Shown here piece after piece: positions 1 through 8,229 of a stretch of DNA of 8,229 nt (positions within the stretch are counted from its first letter, which is position 1; every line of letters starts with the position of its first letter). The notes beneath the pieces are model-generated. The model searched no databases. It was not told where the DNA came from and saw only the letters and a program-made list of their open reading frames with translations. The position numbers were made by a program, and so were the translations under genes. Source of the stretch: a virus (taxonomy: Duplodnaviria; Heunggongvirae; Uroviricota; Caudoviricetes). The DNA lies in the IMG/VR virus record IMGVR_UViG_2645727970_000010, positions 1 to 8,229 of that record; one strand, written 5' to 3'.

Positions 1-2040
1 AGTCTTACTAAATTCCGGTCCCATATCTCCGGTTTGCGGATCGAAAAATATTGCACCTATTGAGATGATCGGGGCATCAGGATTTTTTCCCATGGTTTCA
101 AGGTCGATCATTAGATGGTCACACGTCCTGCTGGTGGATGTGATTTCGTGATGACCGTTCACATTAATTAAGGGATCTGTCGCCTCGCCAGTTTCATTAT
201 CGCTATCGTAATGCTGATTGCCGCCAGGGTTCTCCTTGTGTGGATGTTCAGCGCCTTCCATTTCCTCCGGATCATTTTCCTGAACTTCAACCTGATTCTC
301 TTCATTGAATGTTTCCTGGTATGTTGCGTCGCCCATCACAACACCACAATCAGGGCAGTTGCCGCCGCCGCTCTGACCGCAGGCGGTGCAGATTTTTTCC
401 GCTTCCTGTTGCGCTACTGGCTCAGGTTGTTTCGTTTCTGGCTCGTTTTGTAACGCATTTGGGCTGTTTTGTTCCGCTTTCTGGTCGTTCTGTTCCGTTT
501 CTTGCTGGTTCTGGTTCACTGAATCGCGGGTTTCAATCCCCTTCACCCATTTCGGATCATTCGGATCGCTAATCCCTGCAACAAATTCACCACGTGATAC
601 AGCAAGCAACTGATTGGCGTCAGGCTGGCTGATATTGGCTGCCTGCATAATTTTGTTTACTTCGTCAGCGGTAATTTTTACCGGCTCTGGTTGTGCGGTC
701 GTGTCAGATGCACCAGTATTTTGTTGTGAACCTGAGTATGTACCGTTTTTGCGGGCGAAATATTCTTCTTTCGTAATTTCAGTAGCCCCGGCAGCCAGCG
801 CCTTATCCAGACCAGAAAGTTTGTTTGCGCGACCGTATTTTTCGCCATCCTTGTCGGTAAAGAGGAAGTAGAACGGCCCCTCACGCTCTACAGATGGTTC
901 GACTTCCACTTTGCATTCAGTTTTTTCGTTGTCCGGAATTGCCGTTTCCACTGCATCAGTTTCTGGTACTGGCGACGAGAGAGTATCAGTTGCGCTCTGA
1001 TTTGTTCCTTCATCTTCAAACACGCCCTTTGTAGTCAGGTATTTAGTAATGTATTTGTTCAGTGCCACAGGGTCTTTGTGAATGTCGATCGGACGTTCAC
1101 GGACAAGGCCAAAAATAGTCTGGCGGTCGTAGCGAAGGGCATCAGGCTGTTTGCGCATTGATGCCGAGATACGCTTCCAGTCTTCGCGGTCGTTGTCGAT
1201 AACTTCATTTCTTGCCCAGCGATGGATGCTGCCGTCAATGTTTCCGGCATCCACATCACCAGGCCAGAGGGCGTAGGCCAGTTCGTCATCCAGTGTTTTC
1301 CATGTCTGCTTGTATTCGCGATGAGTGGCAGCAATGACCGGGTTGATTTTTCCTGTTGAATTTTCAGTGTGCTGTTGATTGGCTCCGGCGCGGGCGAGAT
1401 CAACAACAGACGTGTATTTTCCGGTTTCCTTGCGTTCATTTTCGCGACGTTTTTTCCAGATGCGCATCTCTGCCTGAATTTCGGGCCATTTAGCTCCAGG
1501 ATTACATTTATGTTTAACCCACCCGATGGCATGCAGCTTAAGCTCCGGATACATGGCGTTAACTTCTGGCATTTTCATCAACGCTTCAACGATATGTCCG
1601 TCGAATGTTGCCATGTCTTCCTGCAACAATTCCTGTGCGCTAATAACCATATCAACGGTGATGTTTTCACATGTGTCGAACTTAACCATGACAGCGTTCT
1701 GTACTTCAGGGGCCAGCTTGTCAAAAGTGACGTTCATCGGATAGGATTCAGTCTCAACCGGGACAAAAGAAGCAGACTCCTCATCCCAACGGTTTTCCTG
1801 CATATATTCAGCATCCCAGGAATCGAGGGCAGGGCGGGGTATACCAGGTTTATCCTCGCAAACAAGAAATTTATAAGCGCAGTCCTGAGCAACCGGATAA
1901 TGTTCCAGGAATTGCCAGTGAAATTTTGCGCGGGCGCGACATTCATCACCGGCTTCAATGGCAGTGGCTACAGCGACTGCACCTTCTTCCTTTATTGCCT
2001 GTTCGTCCGGAATGGCGGCGCAAATAAAGACTTTACTCAT
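1..2040 (-). CDS. RecE-like exonuclease (exonuclease VIII family) candidate; N-terminal ~680 codons, C-terminus beyond window start
   Basis: Uninterrupted minus-strand frame from ATG at 2040 (MSKVFICAAIPDEQ...) to position 1, spot-checked by hand at 1-120, 301-420, 541-660, 1021-1080 and 1921-2040. GAGG about 10 nt upstream of the ATG. Motif GEFVAGISDPNDPKWVKG, a Q/E-rich linker, a CxxC-x7-CxxC zinc-ribbon-like motif (ICTACGQSGGGNCPDCG) and, at the window edge, a DEDD-exonuclease-like motif (LMIDLETMG). The track omits it because no stop lies in the window. Product is recalled similarity plus synteny, not a search. Confidence 0.7.
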   Translation of the reverse strand, partial: MSKVFICAAIPDEQAIKEEGAVAVATAIEAGDECRARAKFHWQFLEHYPVAQDCAYKFLVCEDKPGIPRPALDSWDAEYMQENRWDEESASFVPVETESYPMNVTFDKLAPEVQNAVMVKFDTCENITVDMVISAQELLQEDMATFDGHIVEALMKMPEVNAMYPELKLHAIGWVKHKCNPGAKWPEIQAEMRIWKKRRENERKETGKYTSVVDLARAGANQQHTENSTGKINPVIAATHREYKQTWKTLDDELAYALWPGDVDAGNIDGSIHRWARNEVIDNDREDWKRISASMRKQPDALRYDRQTIFGLVRERPIDIHKDPVALNKYITKYLTTKGVFEDEGTNQSATDTLSSPVPETDAVETAIPDNEKTECKVEVEPSVEREGPFYFLFTDKDGEKYGRANKLSGLDKALAAGATEITKEEYFARKNGTYSGSQQNTGASDTTAQPEPVKITADEVNKIMQAANISQPDANQLLAVSRGEFVAGISDPNDPKWVKGIETRDSVNQNQQETEQNDQKAEQNSPNALQNEPETKQPEPVAQQEAEKICTACGQSGGGNCPDCGVVMGDATYQETFNEENQVEVQENDPEEMEGAEHPHKENPGGNQHYDSDNETGEATDPLINVNGHHEITSTSRTCDHLMIDLETMGKNPDAPIISIGAIFFDPQTGDMGPEFSKT

Positions 2041-2133
2041 TTTGTTTTAACCTCATGACAGATTTAAGGGTGAACAAATCCCTGCCATTGCTGGCATATA
2101 AGAATGAAATCGGATGTTTATTACGGAACTGTT

Positions 2134-2325
2134 TTAAAGACCTGCCGGGATTTCGTTATTATCCTGGTGAATAACTTTATCGACCGGGTAACAGTTACCG
2201 GGAATTTTCTGTTCGGTTGCTGCAGTCACACACTCCTGCATTGTCCTGTGAACACTGACTGCAATATCAACTGGCTCTCCGGAAACAAGAAAAACTGTCA
2301 GAACAAGTGCAAATGCTGTATTCAT
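2134..2325 (-). CDS. Hypothetical small protein (63 aa) with N-terminal hydrophobic signal or membrane-anchor segment
   Basis: ATG at 2325 overlaps the upstream stop as ATGA (coupling). AAGGA-like SD 8 nt upstream. Sequence MNTAFALVLTVFLVSGEPVD... has a hydrophobic stretch and two Cys in the mature part. The track's 81-aa version starts further upstream without an SD. Confidence 0.45.
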   Translation of the reverse strand: MNTAFALVLTVFLVSGEPVDIAVSVHRTMQECVTAATEQKIPGNCYPVDKVIHQDNNEIPAGL

Positions 2326-2510
2326 TGCCACCATCCTTTTTGTATCGGACGTAAACGGGCCAGCATTGAAAGAATGCATATTTTATTTAATAGCTCCCGT
2401 TCTTGTTTTCTCTTGTTAATGGCATCTTCAGTAAATACTGGGTTACTGATAGTGACACCAATTTCAAAACAACCTTCAGACGTATTAACGTTTGGTAATA
2501 ACGTTTTCAT
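2322..2510 (-). CDS. Hypothetical small protein (62 aa), first gene of a leftward small-gene pair
   Basis: Internal ATG at 2510 preceded by GAGGA (complement of 2518-2522) at about 7 nt; the track's 97-aa start at 2615 has no SD. Stop at 2322-2324 overlaps the next start. Confidence 0.5.
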   Translation of the reverse strand: MKTLLPNVNTSEGCFEIGVTISNPVFTEDAINKRKQERELLNKICILSMLARLRPIQKGWWQ

Positions 2511-2546
2511 TATCGCGTCCTCAATAATGAATTTTGTGATGCAGTG

Positions 2547-2586
2547 CCTGGTGCCTCCAGGTGACGTTAACCAGTTAACAATTAAC
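2547..2586. repeat. Palindrome CCTGG-TGCCT-CCAGG followed by three TTAAC repeats at 7-8 bp spacing
   Basis: Read directly: cctggtgcctccagg at 2547-2561; GTTAAC at 2566-2571 and 2574-2579, ATTAAC at 2581-2586. Lies just upstream (minus sense) of the 2510 start; candidate regulatory site. Confidence 0.3.
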
Positions 2587-2858
2587 GCCGGATACAGAGA
2601 ATCCACCCATAACACTGTTTTTGGTTTTAACTGTTCCGCGTGCGCTCAGCCGCATTCACCGCATCACAAAATTCACTTTAAAAAGGGCGGACATCAGCCA
2701 GCAATGAAACTGATGCCGCCAAAGGTACCAATCAACATGGAGTGTTGTGGCAGGGGTGTCACTTAAGCGTATGGTCAACCTGACAACCCGGTGTCCTCAA
2801 CGGGGAAGGAATAACCCCGCCATACTTACCGCCGCGCCATTTCGCGGGTTGCCACAAC

Positions 2859-2926
2859 CGGAAGCGCACGGTCGAATTAAATTTAACGACACCGTACAGT
2901 GAGACGAACTTCGCCGTGCGCTTTCG
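2859..2926. other. Long inverted repeat (10 perfect bp, up to 13 bp with one G-U; ~42-nt loop) in a hairpin-rich non-coding region
   Basis: aagcgcacgg at 2862-2871 pairs with ccgtgcgctt at 2914-2923. Two GC hairpins lie nearby: cgggg/ccccg at 2801-2819 and ccgcg/cgcgg at 2832-2847. No credible ORF here. Confidence 0.4.
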
Positions 2927-3002
2927 TGTTGTGTGCCTGCTTTTAACCACGTCAGGCGAGGTGGTATCCTTCTTATCCCGAATAACCAAGAAGGAAATCT
3001 AT

Positions 3003-3203
3003 ATGACTAAAGAAGAATTTGTCTCTTATATTTTTGATAAAACGGTTGAAATGTATGCCGCTACTTACGGGTCCTGTAATCCTCTGAATAAACCAGAGGG
3101 GAAAGATGATTTCGACAAAATTTACCGCTTCTTGGAGGACCGCTATATCAAAAGGTTAGAGGACGCAGGGATCAAATCCCCAGTGACGTCACCATTGTCC
3201 TGA
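3003..3203 (+). CDS. Hypothetical small soluble protein (66 aa)
   Basis: ATG at 3003 with AAGGAA SD 6 nt upstream. Sequence MTKEEFVSYIFDKTVEMYAATYGSCNPLNK.... 3' end overlaps the convergent minus-strand gene by 32 bp. The track's 95-aa version starts at a non-ATG codon. Confidence 0.5.
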   Translation: MTKEEFVSYIFDKTVEMYAATYGSCNPLNKPEGKDDFDKIYRFLEDRYIKRLEDAGIKSPVTSPLS

Positions 3204-3537
3204 GAACTTGCAGGACGTCATGATCGTAACTTCCATCCAAACCGCGACGGCAAATTGCTTCTCGTATTACCGGAAGCAGTTCGCTGGAAATCTCGGTGCA
3301 TATTTCACCTGATAATACGCTTGGCTCAAGTGAGAATATTGGTGAACTTACGGTCTTGGTCTCGACAGTTTCAGAGTCAGTGCCAACATTATAAAGCTCA
3401 ACGAAAGCGGTCTTGATTTTCCGGGCCAGATCTTTTGCTGGCTCGCTTGCAATATCTTTCCCGATTTCTCGCAGCACAGAATGCAATGTATGAGCTGCTG
3501 TTTTCTGTACATCAGACGGTAAATCTTTAAATTCCAT
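3172..3537 (-). CDS. Hypothetical acidic protein (121 aa; 125 aa if started at 3549)
   Basis: Only long ORF in this span. ATG at 3537 has GAGG 6 nt upstream; the alternative ATG at 3549 shares its A with the upstream gene's stop (3549-3551). No recognisable motif. Confidence 0.55.
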   Translation of the reverse strand: MEFKDLPSDVQKTAAHTLHSVLREIGKDIASEPAKDLARKIKTAFVELYNVGTDSETVETKTVSSPIFSLEPSVLSGEICTEISSELLPVIREAICRRGLDGSYDHDVLQVLRTMVTSLGI

Positions 3538-3548
3538 CGTCAGCCTCA

Positions 3549-3701
3549 TCAGTCAGTGTTTCTGGCTAACCAGCAACGCGCGCCAGATTCGGTTTTAAAC
3601 GTTTTGCTTTTGGTATATGTCATCGCGGTGAACGTACCGTCTTGGTTGGGGAACACGGCACATACTAGAGATTCGCTGTTGCCAAGATCGATAGTATCCA
3701 T
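3549..3701 (-). CDS. Hypothetical small protein (50 aa), first gene of a two-gene operon downstream of the repressor
   Basis: ATG at 3701 preceded by GAGG at 5 nt; the track's longer form starts at GTG 3755 with no SD. Sequence MDTIDLGNSESLVCAVFPNQDGTFTAMTYTKSKTFKTESGARCWLARNTD. A competing antisense plus-strand ORF (3556..3780) exists. Confidence 0.45.
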   Translation of the reverse strand: MDTIDLGNSESLVCAVFPNQDGTFTAMTYTKSKTFKTESGARCWLARNTD

Positions 3702-3778
3702 GCTGACCTCATTTCCCCTTAACGCCGGGGTAGCGGAACTGTTTGCTGAGAACACCGTGCGGTGTCTTGATGGAAAGT

Positions 3779-3807
3779 AATTTAGAATAACCTAACATAA
3801 GAGGCAA
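3779..3807 (-). promoter_or_regulatory. Candidate leftward promoter (minus strand): -35 TTGCCT, 17-bp spacer, -10 TAAATT
   Basis: By-eye match on the minus strand; the -10 overlaps the 3781-3796 site and the -35 sits 10 bp from the 3817-3832 site, so repressor binding would occlude it. Weak consensus. Confidence 0.25.
3781..3796. promoter_or_regulatory. Candidate operator half-site pair TTTAGA-ATAA-CCTAAC (imperfect 6-4-6 palindrome)
   Basis: Matches the GTTAGA-N4-TCTAAC pattern at 5/6 per half-site; overlaps the -10 of a candidate leftward promoter. Confidence 0.45.
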
Positions 3808-3816
3808 GTGTTTTTT

Positions 3817-3832
3817 GTTAGATTGATCTAAC
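3817..3832. promoter_or_regulatory. Candidate operator GTTAGA-TTGA-TCTAAC (perfect 6-4-6), inside a 26-bp extended palindrome (3812-3837)
   Basis: Read directly; the arms extend as tttttgttagat / atctaacaaaaa. Confidence 0.5.
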
Positions 3833-3869
3833 AAAAAGAGTGGGCGCAACTAATCACTTGAAAAGAATG

Positions 3870-4277
3870 TTATTTTATTGATTTATTTTTACGCGCTTTA
3901 AGCATTTCTTCGAAGAGTTTGTTGAAGTTTTCTACTCTTGCGCGCATTTCAGACAGCAAGGCTTCCTGCTCGGAAGATGGAAGAGCATCGAATAATTCGA
4001 TCAATTCTTTGTGGTTGGGAGTTAGCTCTGTTTCCACATGAAGTTCTTGTGCCGGCACTGGTGCCTTGTCTTCGTCACCAAACATTAGCCATGTAGGTGA
4101 GCACTTCAGAGCATCCGCTAAAGCAAACAATCGTTTTCCGACTGGCTGGGTTTCGTCTCTTTCCCATTGTGAAATTGTGACGTGAGCAACTCCAGCGAGG
4201 CGCGCAGCTTCTCGTTGTGTTAAGCGTAATTCTTTTCGTCGCGCCAGAACTCGCTGGCCTAGGGTTCTTGTATCCAT
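3870..4277 (-). CDS. Prophage repressor, XRE-family HTH (CI/RacR-like), 135 aa, no S24 peptidase domain
   Basis: HTH signature LRLTQREAARLAGVAHVTISQWERDETQP. Divergent from a Cro-like gene with palindromic operators in the 77-bp spacer. No obvious SD; a TAGAAT -10 sits 9 nt before the ATG, suggesting a near-leaderless transcript. Too short and without the Ser/Lys motifs of an autocleaving repressor. Confidence 0.85.
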   Translation of the reverse strand: MDTRTLGQRVLARRKELRLTQREAARLAGVAHVTISQWERDETQPVGKRLFALADALKCSPTWLMFGDEDKAPVPAQELHVETELTPNHKELIELFDALPSSEQEALLSEMRARVENFNKLFEEMLKARKNKSIK

Positions 4278-4278
4278 A

Positions 4279-4294
4279 GTTAGGTAATTCTAAT
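4279..4294. promoter_or_regulatory. Candidate operator GTTAGG-TAAT-TCTAAT (imperfect 6-4-6)
   Basis: Two bp upstream of the repressor start codon; overlaps the candidate repressor-gene -10 (TAGAAT on minus strand). Confidence 0.45.
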
Positions 4295-4298
4295 TTTT

Positions 4299-4327
4299 CT
4301 TGACTTAGGTATCCCGCGCACAATAAT
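4299..4327 (+). promoter_or_regulatory. pR-like rightward promoter: -35 TTGACT (4299-4304), 17-bp spacer, -10 AATAAT (4322-4327)
   Basis: Near-consensus sigma70 hexamers with correct spacing, upstream of the Cro-like gene; the next operator starts right after the -10. Confidence 0.5.
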
Positions 4328-4343
4328 GTTAGAAAAGTCTAAC
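4328..4343. promoter_or_regulatory. Candidate operator GTTAGA-AAAG-TCTAAC (perfect 6-4-6) at the rightward promoter start region
   Basis: Read directly; abuts the -10 and covers the expected transcription start. Confidence 0.5.
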
Positions 4344-4357
4344 AAGAGGGGGCTTTG

Positions 4358-4585
4358 ATGCTTAAAGCTGACGCAATTACTTTTTTTGGCAGCAAAACAA
4401 AGCTTGCCAATGCCGCAGGAGTGAGACTGGCAAGTGTTGCTGCTTGGGGGATACTGGTTCCTGAAGGTCGCGCGATGCGTCTACAGGAGGCATCTGGCGG
4501 GGAGCTTCAGTATGATCCCAAAGTTTATGACGAATATCGTAAGACGAAGCGGGCGGGGCGGTTGAACAATGAAAATCACTCCTGA
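4358..4585 (+). CDS. Cro-like / YdaS-family small HTH regulator (75 aa)
   Basis: ATG at 4358 with AGAGGGGG SD 5 nt upstream. Sequence AITFFGSKTKLANAAGVRLASVAAWGILVPEGRAMRLQEASGGEL resembles the YdaS/Cro pattern. Position is right for the first rightward gene. Confidence 0.7.
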   Translation: MLKADAITFFGSKTKLANAAGVRLASVAAWGILVPEGRAMRLQEASGGELQYDPKVYDEYRKTKRAGRLNNENHS

Positions 4586-5090
4586 ACAGGCTTGTGAGGC
4601 TCTGGATGCCTGGATATGTCGACCAGGAATGACACAGGAGCAGGCGACGATATTAATCACTGAAGCATTCTGGGCTTTGAAAGAGCGCCCGAACATCGAT
4701 GTTCAGCGTGTCACATATGAAGGTGGCGCGGTTGATCAGCGAGCGCTTAGCGTTAATCGAGTGAAGATATTCGAACGCTGGAAGGCTATCGACACTAGGG
4801 ATAAGCGTGAAAAGTTCACAGCGCTAGTGCCTGCAATTATGAAGGCTATCCGGATTAGTGATTTCAGGTTGTATCGTGAGATCAGTGATGGAAAAAGTAT
4901 TACGTACATGATCGCCGGGTTAAATAAAGAATATGGCGATGTGGTGGAATCCGGACTACTTTTTGCAGATCCTGCCGTTGTAGATCGTGAAACTGACGAA
5001 CTTATAGAAAAAGCAATTGCTTTCAAGCTTGCGTATCGACAGCAATACCAACAAAAAGCTGGATGGAATTATGAGTCTTCTTTTTGCTGA
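4569..5090 (+). CDS. YdaT-like / CII-position protein (173 aa), function uncertain
   Basis: ATG at 4569 overlaps the Cro-like 3' end by 17 nt. Sits in the YdaT/CII slot between cro-like and the replication gene. Family assignment is from synteny, not a search. Confidence 0.55.
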   Translation: MKITPEQACEALDAWICRPGMTQEQATILITEAFWALKERPNIDVQRVTYEGGAVDQRALSVNRVKIFERWKAIDTRDKREKFTALVPAIMKAIRISDFRLYREISDGKSITYMIAGLNKEYGDVVESGLLFADPAVVDRETDELIEKAIAFKLAYRQQYQQKAGWNYESSFC

Positions 5091-6036
5091 ACGCCCACTG
5101 GTTATAAACACGCAGCTGGCAATGAAAATCGGCTTAAACGAAGCCATTGTTTTGCAACAACTGCACTACTGGTTGAGAGATACCAACTCCGGTATGGAAT
5201 GTGATGGTGTTCGCTGGATTTATAACACAACGGAACAATGGCTGGAACAGTTCCCATTCTGGTCAGAGTCAACGTTAAAGCGCGCGTTTGCAAGTCTGAA
5301 AACGCTGGGGCTTTTGCGTTGTGAAAAGCTCAATAAATCAAAGCGCGATATGACCAATTTCTACACGATCAACTATGGGAGCGAGCTTTTAGATGGTGGC
5401 AAATTGAACGAATCCATCGGTTCAAAATGCGCCGCTCCATCAGGTCAAAATGACACGATGGAAGAGGTCAAAATGAAACGCTCCATTGGTTCAAAACGAC
5501 CCAATGTCATCGGGTCAAAATGGCCTGATGATCTTACAGAGAATACAACAGAGATTACTACAGAGAATAAAAACACTTTTCGTCCGGAAGCTTCGCAACC
5601 GGACCCGCAGACGACTGAACAGGATTTTTTAACCCGGAACCCCGACGCGGTTGTGTTTAGTGTGAAAAAACGCCAGTGGGGTAGCAGGGAGGATTTGGCG
5701 TGTGCGCAGTGGATTTGGGGGCGGATCGTGAACCTTTACGAACAGGCTGCCAGCGACGATGGAGAGATCATGCGACCAAAAGAGCCTAACTGGACAGCCT
5801 GGGCCAATGACGTGCGCACAATGCGGATGCTGGATGGCAGAAGCCACAGACAAATTTGCGAAATGTTTGGTCGGGTACAGCGGGATCCATTCTGGGTAAA
5901 AAACATCATGAGCCCGTCAAAACTCCGCGAAAAATGGGACGAACTGGTCATCCGCCTGGGACGTTCACCTGTACAGCGTTGTGTGAATCATATTTCTGAA
6001 CCGGATACAGAAATTCCGCCTGGTTTCAGGGGATAA
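5071..6036 (+). CDS. Replication initiation protein, lambda O-like / YdaU-position (321 aa from ATG 5071)
   Basis: Long ORF overlapping the upstream gene by 20 nt. N-terminal winged-helix-like segment (ERPLVINTQLAMKIGLNEAIVLQQLHYWL). Tandem iterons inside the coding sequence produce the SIGSK / SIGSKRP / VIGSKWP protein repeats. The track's TTG start at 5017 is less likely. Confidence 0.7.
   Translation: MSLLFAERPLVINTQLAMKIGLNEAIVLQQLHYWLRDTNSGMECDGVRWIYNTTEQWLEQFPFWSESTLKRAFASLKTLGLLRCEKLNKSKRDMTNFYTINYGSELLDGGKLNESIGSKCAAPSGQNDTMEEVKMKRSIGSKRPNVIGSKWPDDLTENTTEITTENKNTFRPEASQPDPQTTEQDFLTRNPDAVVFSVKKRQWGSREDLACAQWIWGRIVNLYEQAASDDGEIMRPKEPNWTAWANDVRTMRMLDGRSHRQICEMFGRVQRDPFWVKNIMSPSKLREKWDELVIRLGRSPVQRCVNHISEPDTEIPPGFRG
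5413..5585. repeat. Candidate origin of replication: five direct iterons (~17-bp core TCCATCGGTTCAAAATG, period 23-25 bp) plus AT-rich tract
   Basis: Iterons start at 5413, 5436, 5459 (degenerate), 5482 and 5507. The AT-rich tract 5530-5580 carries acagagaata twice. Iterons-then-AT-rich inside the initiator gene is the lambda ori layout. Confidence 0.65.
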
Positions 6037-6076
6037 GTGTTGATTTCAGGTCATGAGGTAATTTTAAGGGGGACTT

Positions 6077-6478
6077 GTGGCAAAAGTTTTTACACAAGAA
6101 GAGCGGGAAAAAATTAAAGGGCAGGTGGTGGAACTCGTGCGCCAGAGCGGTCGTGAGACGTTACGGCAACTGGAAGCTAAAACAGGTGCGACTAGATATC
6201 TGATGAGCGTTCTTGCCAGAGAGCTGGTAGCCAGTGGCGATGTATACAACTCCGGCTACGGGGTATTCCCGTCTGAACAGGCGCGTAAGGACTGGCAAAA
6301 CGCCCGCAAAAAACTCTCGAGGGCAAAGGTGAAGAAACCTGCTGTGGTTGATCCGGACCTTATCTGGTCATTACCTGACGGAGAAATACGTCGCTACGAC
6401 AGTCGTCTGAACATAATCTGTCGCGAGTGCCGGAAGAGTGAAGTTATGCAGCGCATACTGGCATTTTATCAGGGATAA
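6077..6478 (+). CDS. Hypothetical protein (133 aa), GTG start, in the slot normally held by a helicase loader
   Basis: GTG at 6077 with AAGGGGGA SD 3-4 nt upstream; no in-frame ATG until codon 43. Basic, possibly winged-helix N-terminus and CxxC near the C-terminus. Not recognised. Confidence 0.55.
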   Translation: MAKVFTQEEREKIKGQVVELVRQSGRETLRQLEAKTGATRYLMSVLARELVASGDVYNSGYGVFPSEQARKDWQNARKKLSRAKVKKPAVVDPDLIWSLPDGEIRRYDSRLNIICRECRKSEVMQRILAFYQG

Positions 6479-6751
6479 TGTTAGGTATTTTAGACGTTAC
6501 TAGATTAAAAAGCATTAGTTCAGGAGTGAATTGACATTCTCATTTTTCATGGCACAGGGTAGATCTGGCGTGGTTGTCCGCTTTGTACCAGGAGCAGACG
6601 TCTAATATATCTACTTGGTTCTTAAATTCAGTGCATCACTGCAAGCTGCTCAACATCAATAAATTAGGGAATAACTCACAACTTTGACTGTTACCACATG
6701 GCATCATAGTGTTTAGAGCATGCATAAGCACCAACGAGGAGTTTTAACATA

Positions 6752-7339
6752 ATGGGACTGGATGATTTCGGCCTTAGTATCTTAGCCGGACTTCTTGCAA
6801 ACAGACTTGATTTCTCAAAACCGAAGGGCACCTCAGCTCAAATGAATGAAGTTATACCAGATGTGATTGAAGAACCAGACAAATTCTCGCTAAGTGCAAA
6901 TTTGCCAAAAAAATTCAAGACATTCGACGTATGGAGTGATTTGGACAAATTGCTAAAGGTTGTGAAAGAACCCAAAATATCTGTTTTGATAGAGGAGCAA
7001 CCATCAACGTACTATCGGCTCCCTAGCTTGGTTCTGGAATCTCAAATCACAGGGGAATGGTATGTTTTCCCGCGAGGCCGCATGAGTTTTGAGGGCAATG
7101 GAGGTGGCATACAGAACGCAGAAGTAATCTTCAATCAGTTGAAAGAAGAAAATGTTCCGGTGGGAGTATGGGTAATCGATCAAGCTCTTCTCGACCGCCT
7201 CGATAACGGACAAGAATGTTGGCCAACCATACGATTACAAATAGTACCATTCTTGGCCGCACCATCGAGCGAATACCCATGGTTCGAAATACAACGAAAC
7301 GTTGCAAAACTCACAGAATTCCATTTGACTAATGATTAA
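6752..7339 (+). CDS. Hypothetical protein (195 aa), orphan cargo gene in an AT-richer segment
   Basis: Clean ORF, ATG at 6752 with GAGGAG SD 10 nt upstream. Composition is AT-richer than the flanking prophage genes by eye (not computed). No Walker, HEPN, HTH or hydrophobic signature found. Confidence 0.7.
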   Translation: MGLDDFGLSILAGLLANRLDFSKPKGTSAQMNEVIPDVIEEPDKFSLSANLPKKFKTFDVWSDLDKLLKVVKEPKISVLIEEQPSTYYRLPSLVLESQITGEWYVFPRGRMSFEGNGGGIQNAEVIFNQLKEENVPVGVWVIDQALLDRLDNGQECWPTIRLQIVPFLAAPSSEYPWFEIQRNVAKLTEFHLTND

Positions 7340-7620
7340 TAGTGAGCCCTAACAGGATAATGGCACACTGGATATGACCACCTAAGCAGAGGCAGTACAG
7401 GGGTAATAAACTATGAACTCCTGCTTTTCGCTCAAAGCGGACTAGAAGGTTAGCTTGTGTCGGACTTTGCGTATTAAAAGAAGTGCTGGTGGTGACTAGT
7501 GGTTGAGCCCCATTTCCACAGAAAAAATCAGAGAAACTATACCCAATAGTTGCATTGAATCACTGACGAGACAGCCTCATATTCATCAGGACTGGTGTAC
7601 ATCCAATACAGGAGGTTGTG

Positions 7621-7710
7621 GTGCTGGTTCTCAAATGTGCGCTGGCTATTACGGCTGTAATGGCGATTTATTGTCTTGCTATTGTTCTTATGGATCGCCT
7701 TTCTGACTGA
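7621..7710 (+). CDS. Candidate small hydrophobic peptide (29 aa), GTG start
   Basis: Perfect AGGAGG SD (7610-7615), 5-nt spacer, GTG at 7621. Translation (M)LVLKCALAITAVMAIYCLAIVLMDRLSD is one predicted membrane helix. Overlaps the frame-0 track ORF 7503..7706 (TTG start, Cys/Gly-rich). Candidate -35 TTGAAT / -10 CATATT at 7555-7583. Very uncertain. Confidence 0.25.
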   Translation: MLVLKCALAITAVMAIYCLAIVLMDRLSD

Positions 7711-7764
7711 TTTCATATTGGCGAGGTAACGGGAGTTAAGTAGAATGGCTGCGGGTGCTTGAGG

Positions 7765-7800
7765 CTATCTGCCTCAGGCATGAACACCAACGGCAGATAG
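7765..7800. other. Hairpin with 9-bp perfect stem (ctatctgcc / ggcagatag) and 18-nt loop
   Basis: Read directly. A second small hairpin gcgtc-ctgcaa-gacgc (7824-7839) is flanked by direct repeats TTAACATTA (7814-7822, 7840-7848). Could be IS terminus, transposase terminator or the small-ORF transcript 3' structure. Confidence 0.35.
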
Positions 7801-7862
7801 AGAAAAGCCCCAGTTAACATTACGCGTCCTGCAAGACGCTTAACATTAATCTGAGGCCAATT

Positions 7863-8229
7863 TCATGCTAGACACATGTAGGTTAGCCTCTTACGTGCCG
7901 AAAGGCAAGGAGATGTATGGGTCCACCACATATTGCAATTTTTATTCTCTTTTAAAATATATTCCACGGGCGTCATTAGTGCGAGCGCCTTGTGGGGTCT
8001 TTTGCTGTTATACAGCACCAGATATTCCGCCAGCTTCTGGTTAAATAGCGCCAGATCTTCAAAGAGTAAAATCTCATTAAATTCAATAAACTGCTCTCTT
8101 AACGTCCGGTTAAAACGTTCACAGATAGCGTTCATTTTTGGCGTGTAGGGATAGGTCCAGAGGTGTTTGATAGCGGCTTCCTGCAGCGTTTTGTCGAAGT
8201 TTCCCAGGAACTCTTTTCCGTTATCTGTG
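7863..8229 (-). CDS. DDE transposase, rve/integrase-core type (IS481-family-like), C-terminal part; N-terminus beyond window end
   Basis: Hand translation upstream of the track ORF gives ...TDNGKEFLGNFDKTLQEAAIKHLWTYPYTPKMNAICERFNRTLREQF...YNSKRPHKALALMTPVEY, carrying the second D (TDNGKEF) and the E (CERFNRTL) of the DDE triad plus the conserved YNxxRPHxxLxxxTP tail. Frame is open to position 8229. Confidence 0.8.
   Translation of the reverse strand, partial: TDNGKEFLGNFDKTLQEAAIKHLWTYPYTPKMNAICERFNRTLREQFIEFNEILLFEDLALFNQKLAEYLVLYNSKRPHKALALMTPVEYILKENKNCNMWWTHTSPCLSARKRLTYMCLA

Follow-up and report, generated by a model that had tools for sequence, protein, structure and literature searches.

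We analysed a stretch of viral DNA of 8,229 nucleotides (nt), positions 1 to 8,229 of IMG/VR record IMGVR_UViG_2645727970_000010 (Caudoviricetes), which is called the window below. It comes from a lambdoid prophage of the Qin/mEp460 type and represents the immunity and early-left (dicBF) region. Two small convergent genes in it, orf66 (66 amino acids, aa) on the plus strand and orf121 (121 aa) on the minus strand, make up a so far uncharacterised accessory cassette in a slot of lambdoid early-left operons that is known to vary, and the unusual feature of this cassette is that a cognate partner domain of Orf66 is encoded on the overlapping early gene. This domain appears to be the C-terminal helical hairpin (CTD) of Orf121. 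In our overall reading, to which we give a probability of about 0.5, a promoter-proximal early-left operon carries orf66 as an antisense accessory gene, Orf66 would be made in the lysogen, and the CTD would be its early antidote. The architectural part of this reading we regard as very probable, and a function in exclusion and self-immunity is put forward tentatively, at less than even odds.

A sequence-only reading of the same DNA had described a coupled minus-strand pair, of 50 aa and of 121 acidic aa, that converges on a 66-aa plus-strand gene, and the coordinates and isoelectric point (pI) agreed with this description. The 121-aa protein is indeed acidic (pI 4.99, net charge -6), and orf121 starts 11 nt past the stop of the 50-aa gene, with GAGG as its Shine-Dalgarno sequence. 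All three are real genes and not chance open reading frames (ORFs). The same three were found in the PGAP annotation of BL21(DE3), as a 'DUF1391 family protein' and two 'hypothetical proteins', and the 121-aa protein of E. coli B is named 'Ybl81' in UniRef. A 125-aa form of orf121, starting at an ATG at 3549, was rejected since the homologues all start with MEFKDL and both PGAP and PHROG give 121 aa. The leftward unit is ordered ydfA (the 50-aa gene), orf121, then antisense across orf66, a DicF-like small RNA (sRNA) with its terminator, dicB and ydfD. Within this unit orf66 is thus antisense to the early-left operon and convergent on orf121. The positions of all features are collected in Table 1.

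The distribution of the two genes carries the argument. All 55 IMG/VR contigs with a full-length orf66 also carried orf121, in the same overlap geometry. The repressors of these contigs were 100%, about 57%, 52%, 51.5% or 43% identical to that of the window or had no detectable relation to it, and both ydfA and dicB/ydfD were present in some of the contigs only. At one locus (L004) the pair directly followed an S24-type CI repressor, with no ydfA. This pattern indicates that the orf66-orf121 cassette is a mobile linked pair.

Three observations further show that the conserved partner of orf66 is the CTD (aa 78-121) and not the whole of Orf121. In Cedecea (L005, L006), orf66 (71% identical) lies between cro and a cII-like gene, antisense to both, and its convergent partner there is an ORF that has its own start codon just ahead of the CTD, lacks an N-terminal hairpin (N-domain) and reads through the whole antisense strand of orf66. 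Two other loci (L160, L161) have orf66 homologues of 52-55% identity, which converge on, and overlap by 56 nt with, a 129-aa gene directly after an S24 repressor. This 129-aa protein has a homologous CTD, in which E86, L88, P89, I95, G99, G102, M115, S118 and G120 are invariant, joined to an N-terminal part unrelated to the N-domain of Orf121 (hhalign probability 0.2%). Among close relatives, finally, synonymous divergence was about 0.13 in the CTD as compared to 0.3-1.8 in the N-domain, and the lower value fits a recombination junction in the linker between the two hairpins. In all architectures the CTD gene is in sense with the early operon (that of the early-left promoter, PL, or its rightward counterpart PR), and orf66 is antisense to the CTD gene.

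Both proteins were predicted by AlphaFold2 to be built of helical hairpins. For Orf66 the model is a single two-helix hairpin (helices 3-21 and 31-54; predicted local distance difference test, pLDDT, 76.5), and the protein is soluble and acidic, with a grand average of hydropathy of -0.64 and two amphipathic helices. Orf121 was modelled with helices 8-25 and 31-51 at a pLDDT of about 87 and helices 78-97 and 105-118 at about 70, and residues 54-80 were below 50. The substitution pattern indicates that orf121 and orf66 are both under purifying selection. The ratio of nonsynonymous to synonymous substitution (dN/dS) in orf121 was 0.08-0.4 over the first 55 codons, 0.5-0.9 in the linker and 0.3-0.7 in the C-terminal 44 codons among close relatives. 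Compared with Cedecea the CTD is 59% identical, with proportions of nonsynonymous and synonymous differences (pN and pS) of 0.24 and 0.78, and synonymous sites are saturated at this distance. For orf66 the dN/dS was 0.12 against the Cedecea homologue and 0.25-0.5 against closer homologues, and the protein is kept down to 52% identity with 28 invariant residues. The pairing of orf66 and the CTD has been kept across about 50% divergence and three domain architectures, which argues for a functional interaction, and probably a physical one, between Orf66 and the CTD.

The linkage could also stem solely from the overlapping 3' ends, with the two genes serving independent functions: orf121 would be an ordinary early gene, for example in host takeover or regulation, and orf66 an unrelated moron. 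We consider this rather doubtful, though it deserves real weight. An overlap of 32-56 nt means that recombination can hardly part the two genes, the tails of other proteins with the N-domain are often encoded antisense to the cargo gene of their locus (up to 131 nt) and may be accidental read-through, and the dN/dS of the CTD given above is compatible with this view. The CTD is nevertheless kept as a protein in the comparison with Cedecea, where synonymous sites are saturated, and in three different N-terminal contexts, one of which supplies its own start codon. Its polarity, always in sense with the early operon, moreover exceeds what an overlap requires.

The place that the cassette occupies is shared with sieB. 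In the Rac prophage of K-12 the order is racR, ydaG, ydaF (DUF1391) and then a convergent sieB, and in lambda N is followed by a convergent sieB. Like sieB of lambda, P22 and Rac, orf66 lies antisense within the PL operon. As with sieB of lambda and Rac, it converges on the first early gene or genes and has a conserved block of about 35 nt in front of it. In lambda this block, TGTGCCTGTCTTTTAACCAC-N-TCAGGCTCGGTGGT, is some 55 nt upstream of sieB, and in the window it occupies 2931-2965, upstream of orf66. It was also found upstream of Rac sieB, of the orf66 homologues at L004 and L160, and of at least six other unrelated cargo types. With its shared position, orientation and upstream block, orf66 is an alternative occupant of the slot that holds sieB elsewhere. 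This slot is known to vary, as phage L has no sieB at the early-left place where P22 carries it (PMC8022706). The sequence-only reading had placed all three genes in an exclusion-gene slot of the rexAB or sieB kind. For orf66 the comparison with sieB holds in position, orientation and upstream block, and the comparison with rexAB does not, as the minus-strand pair is downstream of PL. In lambda the order is cI-rexA-rexB-OL, with rexAB between the repressor and PL and transcribed together with the repressor, whereas in the window the promoter and its operators are between the repressor and ydfA.

The likeness to SieB does not extend to the protein. There is no sequence similarity between SieB and Orf66 in Pfam, NCBIfam, PHROG or PADLOC. 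SieB proteins have 163-192 aa (162 aa in Rac) and hydrophobic N-terminal segments (in Rac, the N-terminal half), as opposed to the 66 aa of the soluble, acidic Orf66. P22 carries its own escape function against SieB, made up of Esc and the sas antisense RNA (PMC7067206, PMC12197685). There the antidote is an in-frame truncated form of the excluder, whereas the putative antidote of the window would be a protein domain of its own, read from the other strand. SieB excludes superinfecting phages by aborting their lytic growth, and the likeness of orf66 to sieB is one of slot and flank.

The N-domain of Orf121 is found well beyond the pair. Its 52 residues (MEFKDLPSDVQ...AFVELY) define a small enterobacterial prophage family of proteins of 50-200 aa with unrelated C-terminal tails. 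The genes of this family came first after a DicA-like repressor at the loci with available context (L066, L067, L069), and a convergent small ORF overlapped their 3' end at nearly all of the approximately 33 loci surveyed; the L066 contig ends too soon to show such an ORF. Only 4 loci came from a scan of genome contigs with the N-domain, and a second viral scan added little. The tails of the N-domain proteins vary with the type of convergent cargo (L067, L069, L130, L132-L153), and in several of them 60-130 nt are encoded antisense to the 3' end of the cargo gene. Ten cargo types were seen in the slot, sieB included. The cargo ORFs other than orf66 comprise eight unrelated types, five of them with a PHROG family of unknown function; when nine alternative cargo proteins were scanned against Pfam and PHROG, there was no Pfam match and no known function. 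It is a speculative extension of these observations that orf66 and the CTD are a previously unrecognised two-component system, in which Orf66 would block an early step in the lytic development of incoming phages or of the prophage itself and the CTD, supplied by the immediate-early PL transcript, would spare the carrier phage, and that the slot, from the first PL gene to a DicF/KilS-type sRNA, would be a hotspot of lambdoid phages with conserved flanks that swaps cargo together with matching tails.

Morons are phage accessory genes that have their own promoter, are expressed from the prophage and often run antisense to lytic operons. By its position, orientation and mosaic boundaries orf66 fits this definition. 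Like other morons it is small, opposite in orientation to the early operon that surrounds it, bounded by mosaic junctions, provided with a promoter-like element and free of an operator, and an antisense orientation is characteristic of prophage accessory loci (PMC7067206). It differs from other morons in its linkage to a cognate domain of the neighbouring early gene, with overlapping coding regions. Truncated or chimeric remnants of orf66, with its first 15-38 codons followed by unrelated sequence, adjoin dicB at four loci (L007 4001-4288, L063, L064 and L065); their fusion to unrelated sequence shows that recombination junctions also fall inside orf66.

Based on its orientation, the lack of a nearby operator and the analogy with sieB, orf66 is probably transcribed independently in the lysogen. 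The candidate promoter element is an extended -10 motif, and in 13 variant sequences from in front of different cargo genes TGnTAnnnT did not vary. The conserved block is directly followed, in each cargo type, by an inverted repeat of 5-10 bp, the 3' arm of which overlaps or abuts the Shine-Dalgarno sequence. Repeats equivalent to that of the window were found at L004, L062, L069, L073, L130, L132, L133, L145, L152 and L160. The arms differ by cargo type yet remain complementary (CCTTCTT/AAGAAGG, TCCTTA/TAAGGA, TCTTGG/CCAAGA, TGCTGG/CCAGCA). Folded as an RNA hairpin, the repeat forms a stem in most variants, with modest predicted stability (z scores of -0.6 to -2.4) and no clear strand preference; T-G pairs in three of the variants favour plus-strand RNA. 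Transcription from the extended -10 element, should this be the promoter, would leave out the 5' arm of the repeat. The conserved flank as a whole could be a promoter for the cargo, could belong to the immediate-early leftward transcript as, for example, a tL1-like element, or could anchor the recombination by which cassettes are exchanged.

The operon in which orf66 is embedded has the control region of an early-left operon. The sequence-only reading had noted an operator-flanked promoter, and this was borne out by two TTAG-N6-CTAA sites at the minus-strand promoter TTGCCT-17-TAAATT. This PL-type promoter lies between the repressor gene and the 50-aa gene. It matches 8/12 consensus positions, under the threshold of the promoter scan, and is inside the block 3558-3988 that is homologous to the K-12 region upstream of ydfA. 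The operator motif occurs in exactly 4 copies in the 8.2-kb window as compared to 0.1 expected. A scan of the whole window found copies only at the two early promoters and none near orf66. In K-12 the promoter upstream of ydfA drives the dicBF operon and has DicA and DicC as its repressors (PMC5069750), and by analogy the DicA-like repressor of the window would control its leftward promoter. As ydfA and orf121 lie downstream of this promoter, they should be silent in the lysogen and expressed on induction. The same expectation, silence in the lysogen and transcription on derepression, follows from analogy with K-12 Qin and with Rac. When RacR was perturbed, ydaF, ydaG and kilR increased 40-70-fold, and sieB was not in the induced list (PMC11014345).

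From these elements we propose the following mechanism. As a moron, orf66 would have its own repressor-independent promoter, active in the lysogen, and its product, a small soluble two-helix protein, would most likely hinder incoming phages or an early lytic step. On induction or infection, transcription from PL would run antisense through orf66 and shut it down. Since dicF and dicB can be reached by the leftward transcript only through orf66, in antisense, induction should silence orf66. The same transcript would yield Orf121, whose CTD would bind or neutralise Orf66 and give self-immunity, as Esc does against SieB in P22. The N-domain of Orf121 would form an early-gene module of its own, which is widespread.

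The linkage and the opposite expression polarity fit equally well with reversed roles, in which the CTD would be a toxic or takeover effector of early lytic growth and Orf66, made in the lysogen, would protect the host against leaky expression of the repressed operon or time the effector. The operon does encode toxic products, namely DicF, DicB and YdfD (PMC5069750; 'lysis protein YdfD' in the PGAP annotation of BL21). We nevertheless consider reversed roles unlikely. Neither protein matched a toxin or antitoxin family, both are small acidic helical hairpins with no catalytic signature, and the genes are convergent, unlike the co-directional, autoregulated bicistron of type II systems. The pair does resemble type II toxin-antitoxin systems in being two small, tightly linked genes that sit on a mobile element and vary together. 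The differences are the convergent arrangement, the absence of a family or fold match and of a DNA-binding antitoxin motif, and the control of one partner by the lytic repressor.

A role at the RNA level would account for a promoter-like flank that is kept in front of cargo genes with varying coding sequences. Convergent transcription from the orf66 promoter would then block leaky leftward transcription in the lysogen, which crosses the entire orf66 antisense before it reaches dicF and dicB, and would keep these genes silent, with the peptide of minor importance. This appears improbable. The peptide is under purifying selection, as seen from the comparison with Cedecea, and its conservation at 52% identity with the invariant residues given above would be unexpected, and K-12 Qin silences dicBF with no convergent gene.

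Several points weigh against the proposed exclusion and antidote roles. Orf66 has no membrane segment, unlike SieB, and family and fold libraries gave no homology or fold match for an exclusion, defence or toxin-antitoxin activity. The conserved TGnTAnnnT motif is the sole basis of the putative orf66 promoter, a consensus promoter scan called none upstream of orf66, and the conserved flank could belong to the leftward transcript instead. In close relatives the CTD has a dN/dS of 0.3-0.7, and the linkage may simply reflect the overlap of the two genes. In K-12 the toxicity of the induced operon was due to dicF and dicB, the deletion of which relieved the growth inhibition (PMC5069750); ydfA, ydfB and ydfC are not the source of toxicity there, and the early genes of the window may accordingly have subtle phenotypes. 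A literature search gave no paper that names Ybl81 and no expression data for orf66 or orf121.

The operon of the window is a variant of the known dicBF operon. In K-12 Qin the order is dicA, ydfA, ydfB, ydfC, dicF, dicB and ydfD, and the window is collinear with it except at 2945-3557. With blastn, window 3558-3988 (the 3' end of dicA through ydfA) was 78% identical to K-12 and window 2300-2944 (the dicF leader through dicB) 90.6% identical, and no similarity to K-12 was found for 2945-3557. The two operons share the repressor type, a homologous promoter, ydfA as first gene, the dicF leader, dicB and ydfD, in the same order and on the same strand. They differ in that K-12 has ydfB and ydfC where the window has orf121 on the operon strand and orf66 opposite, and in the divergent DicF-like RNA of the window. 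We also considered the cassette as a diverged ydfBC and rejected this, since Orf121 and Orf66 showed no similarity to K-12 YdfB and YdfC in blastp. A counterpart of YdfB or YdfC is absent from the window, so that the 121-aa and 66-aa genes constitute a cassette that replaces ydfB-ydfC.

The DicF-like RNA matched Rfam RF00039 over the full-length model (1-52) with 38.8 bits, below the gathering score of 48, and E = 8e-6, and at 2690-2717 there is a terminator-like hairpin with a T run behind it. Compared with K-12 DicF, the RNA has a different 5' seed region and loop but keeps the terminator stem and T run; it may be a DicF variant with a different target set. In the dicF-dicB intergenic region, the dicB leader, there is a sub-threshold match to Rfam STnc100 at 2478-2687 on the minus strand (38.1 vs 47 bits). 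A DicF-like hairpin and terminator, TTGGCGGTTGGCAG...CTGTTAACCGCCCTTTTT, was also observed in the prophage with an S24-type repressor at L160 (2830-2900, minus strand), just past the orf66 cassette, so that even in distant relatives an sRNA of the DicF family marks the boundary of the slot.

The 50-aa gene belongs to the operon and not to the pair. The sequence-only reading had recognised no motif in any of the three proteins, which proved wrong for this one: it falls in the DUF1391 family (PF07151; 87.6 bits with the cut-off at 27.3, E = 4e-25, covering profile positions 1-47 of 48) and is 86% identical to K-12 YdfA. The end at 3755 given earlier corresponds to a GTG-extended form of 68 aa. 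The gene holds the place of ydfA in Qin, and ydaF is comparable in Rac, where it is second after ydaG. No functional study was found in the literature on DUF1391 or ydaF/ydaG. In K-12 Qin ydfA occurs without orf121 and orf66, and these occur without ydfA at L004, L058-L062, L160 and L161. We conclude that ydfA is an independent neighbour of orf66 and orf121.

That all three genes make up one exclusion, toxin-antitoxin or takeover module in a rexAB-like slot, as had been suggested, is on this evidence very improbable. The suggestion was reasonable in that the genes are small and adjoin the repressor, the minus-strand pair is closely spaced and the promoter is flanked by operators. This promoter is the PL equivalent of the dicBF operon, and its genes are therefore repressed, not expressed, with the repressor; the promoter cannot drive orf66, which is read from the other strand; and ydfA and the cassette are distributed independently. 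Nothing in Pfam, NCBIfam or PADLOC links the three genes to toxin-antitoxin or known defence families, and at E <= 1 none of the three proteins had a toxin-antitoxin or defence family match. What stands is the description of small uncharacterised phage accessory genes that adjoin an immunity region.

Homology searches gave no relative of known function for Orf121 or Orf66. Neither had a relative in Pfam, NCBIfam, PADLOC or the PDB sequence profiles, and neither gave a Foldseek match at E <= 0.001 in PDB and BFVD. The sole credible Foldseek matches were two phage proteins of 50-52 aa from BFVD that consist of the N-domain only, for example from phage phi191. An exhaustive phmmer search with Orf121 of 1.8 billion representative proteins gave 28 matches, all of them small hypothetical proteins and mostly limited to the N-domain. 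In word-indexed searches with Orf121, Orf66 and an Orf66 profile the matches were all enterobacterial hypothetical proteins. A match to known housekeeping phage proteins, which would have spoken against an accessory module, was not found.

In the immunity region the repressor is 57% identical to K-12 DicA over 130 aa, and its BL21 counterpart has the PGAP label 'helix-turn-helix domain-containing protein'. The 76-aa ORF of Table 1 was rejected as a gene, as all of it falls in the non-coding dicF leader, a conserved stretch with 90.6% identity to K-12, where the annotation has no gene; its database matches probably represent a spurious ORF family. Further to the right, at 7753-7919 on the plus strand, there is a hok/sok type I toxin-antitoxin locus (sok antitoxin RNA, RF01794, 111.9 bits), which corresponds to hokD of the BL21 Qin-type prophage. 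A 90-aa ORF at 7863-8135 on the minus strand (MNAICERFNRTLREQFIEF...KRPHKAL...) resembles by eye the C-terminal part of an IS3-family transposase, and its overlap with the hok/sok region suggests an insertion sequence or a remnant of one.

Table 1. Positions of the genes, protein domains and sequence elements discussed in the text (window coordinates unless a locus is named).
Feature	Position	Strand	Remarks
ydfD	2134-2325	minus	PF07358 (DUF1482)
dicB	2322-2510	minus	NF049927, 126.6 bits vs cut-off 100; PF05358
DicF-like sRNA and terminator	2685-2733	minus	Rfam RF00039
76-aa ORF (rejected as a gene)	2759-2989	minus	phrog_8854 match; weak PADLOC 'cyclase' match
Conserved slot flank TGCGCTTTCGTGTTGTGTGCCTGCTTTTAACCACGTCAGGCGAGGTGGT	2917-2965	plus	common to regions upstream of lambda and Rac sieB
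Conserved flank in lambda	L155 593-630, about lambda 34392-34429
Conserved flank in Rac	L154 2050-2110
Mosaic cassette, 613 bp	2945-3557		orf66 and orf121; in place of K-12 Qin ydfB-ydfC
Candidate extended -10 element TGgTATCCT for orf66	2962-2970	plus	inferred
Inverted repeat CCTTCTT / AAGAAGG	2968-2974 / 2988-2994	plus	3' arm overlaps orf66 Shine-Dalgarno
orf66 Shine-Dalgarno AAGGA	2991-2995	plus	
orf66, 66 aa	3003-3203	plus	phrog_34441, E = 1e-49, unknown function
orf66/orf121 3'-end overlap, 32 nt	3172-3203		
orf121, 121 aa, MEFKDL...	3172-3537	minus	phrog_33007, E = 1e-81, unknown function
orf121 C-terminal helical hairpin (CTD), aa 78-121	3175-3306	minus	
orf121 acidic disordered linker, aa 53-77			
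orf121 N-terminal helical hairpin (N-domain), aa 1-52	3382-3537	minus	
ydfA/ydaF homologue (DUF1391), 50 aa	3549-3701	minus	first gene of early-left operon; ATG start
PL-type promoter, -35 TTGCCT, 17-nt spacer, -10 TAAATT	3779-3807	minus	read from sequence
Operator TTAG-N6-CTAA	3782-3795		overlaps -10 and spacer of leftward promoter
Operator TTAG-N6-CTAA	3818-3831		just upstream of leftward -35
Repressor, 135 aa, DicA-type (CI/C2-like)	3870-4277	minus	HTH_3, E = 1.5e-14
Two operators TTAG-N6-CTAA	4280-4293 and 4329-4342		between repressor and cro, at divergent promoters
P22_Cro-type gene	4355-4585	plus	
YdaT/CII-like gene	4569-5090	plus	replication gene next

The arrangement of the window was 99.2% identical in phage mEp460_ev081, and the cassette was 99.3% identical in the Qin-type prophage of E. 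coli B, including BL21(DE3), REL606, C41/C43 and T7 Express derivatives. At least 80% of the 1-kb region was present in 368 of 5,426 complete E. coli genomes. Some of the most widely used bacteria thus harbour a prophage accessory pair that is still uncharacterised. Should the pair turn out to have no phenotype, it would be ordinary mosaic filler of an early operon. If Orf66 is an excluder and the CTD its antidote, the pair would be a very small protein-protein version of the SieB/Esc logic. The variable sieB slot with its conserved flanks, in which diverse small genes are exchanged among lambdoid prophages, would offer a compact source of new genes for interference between phages.

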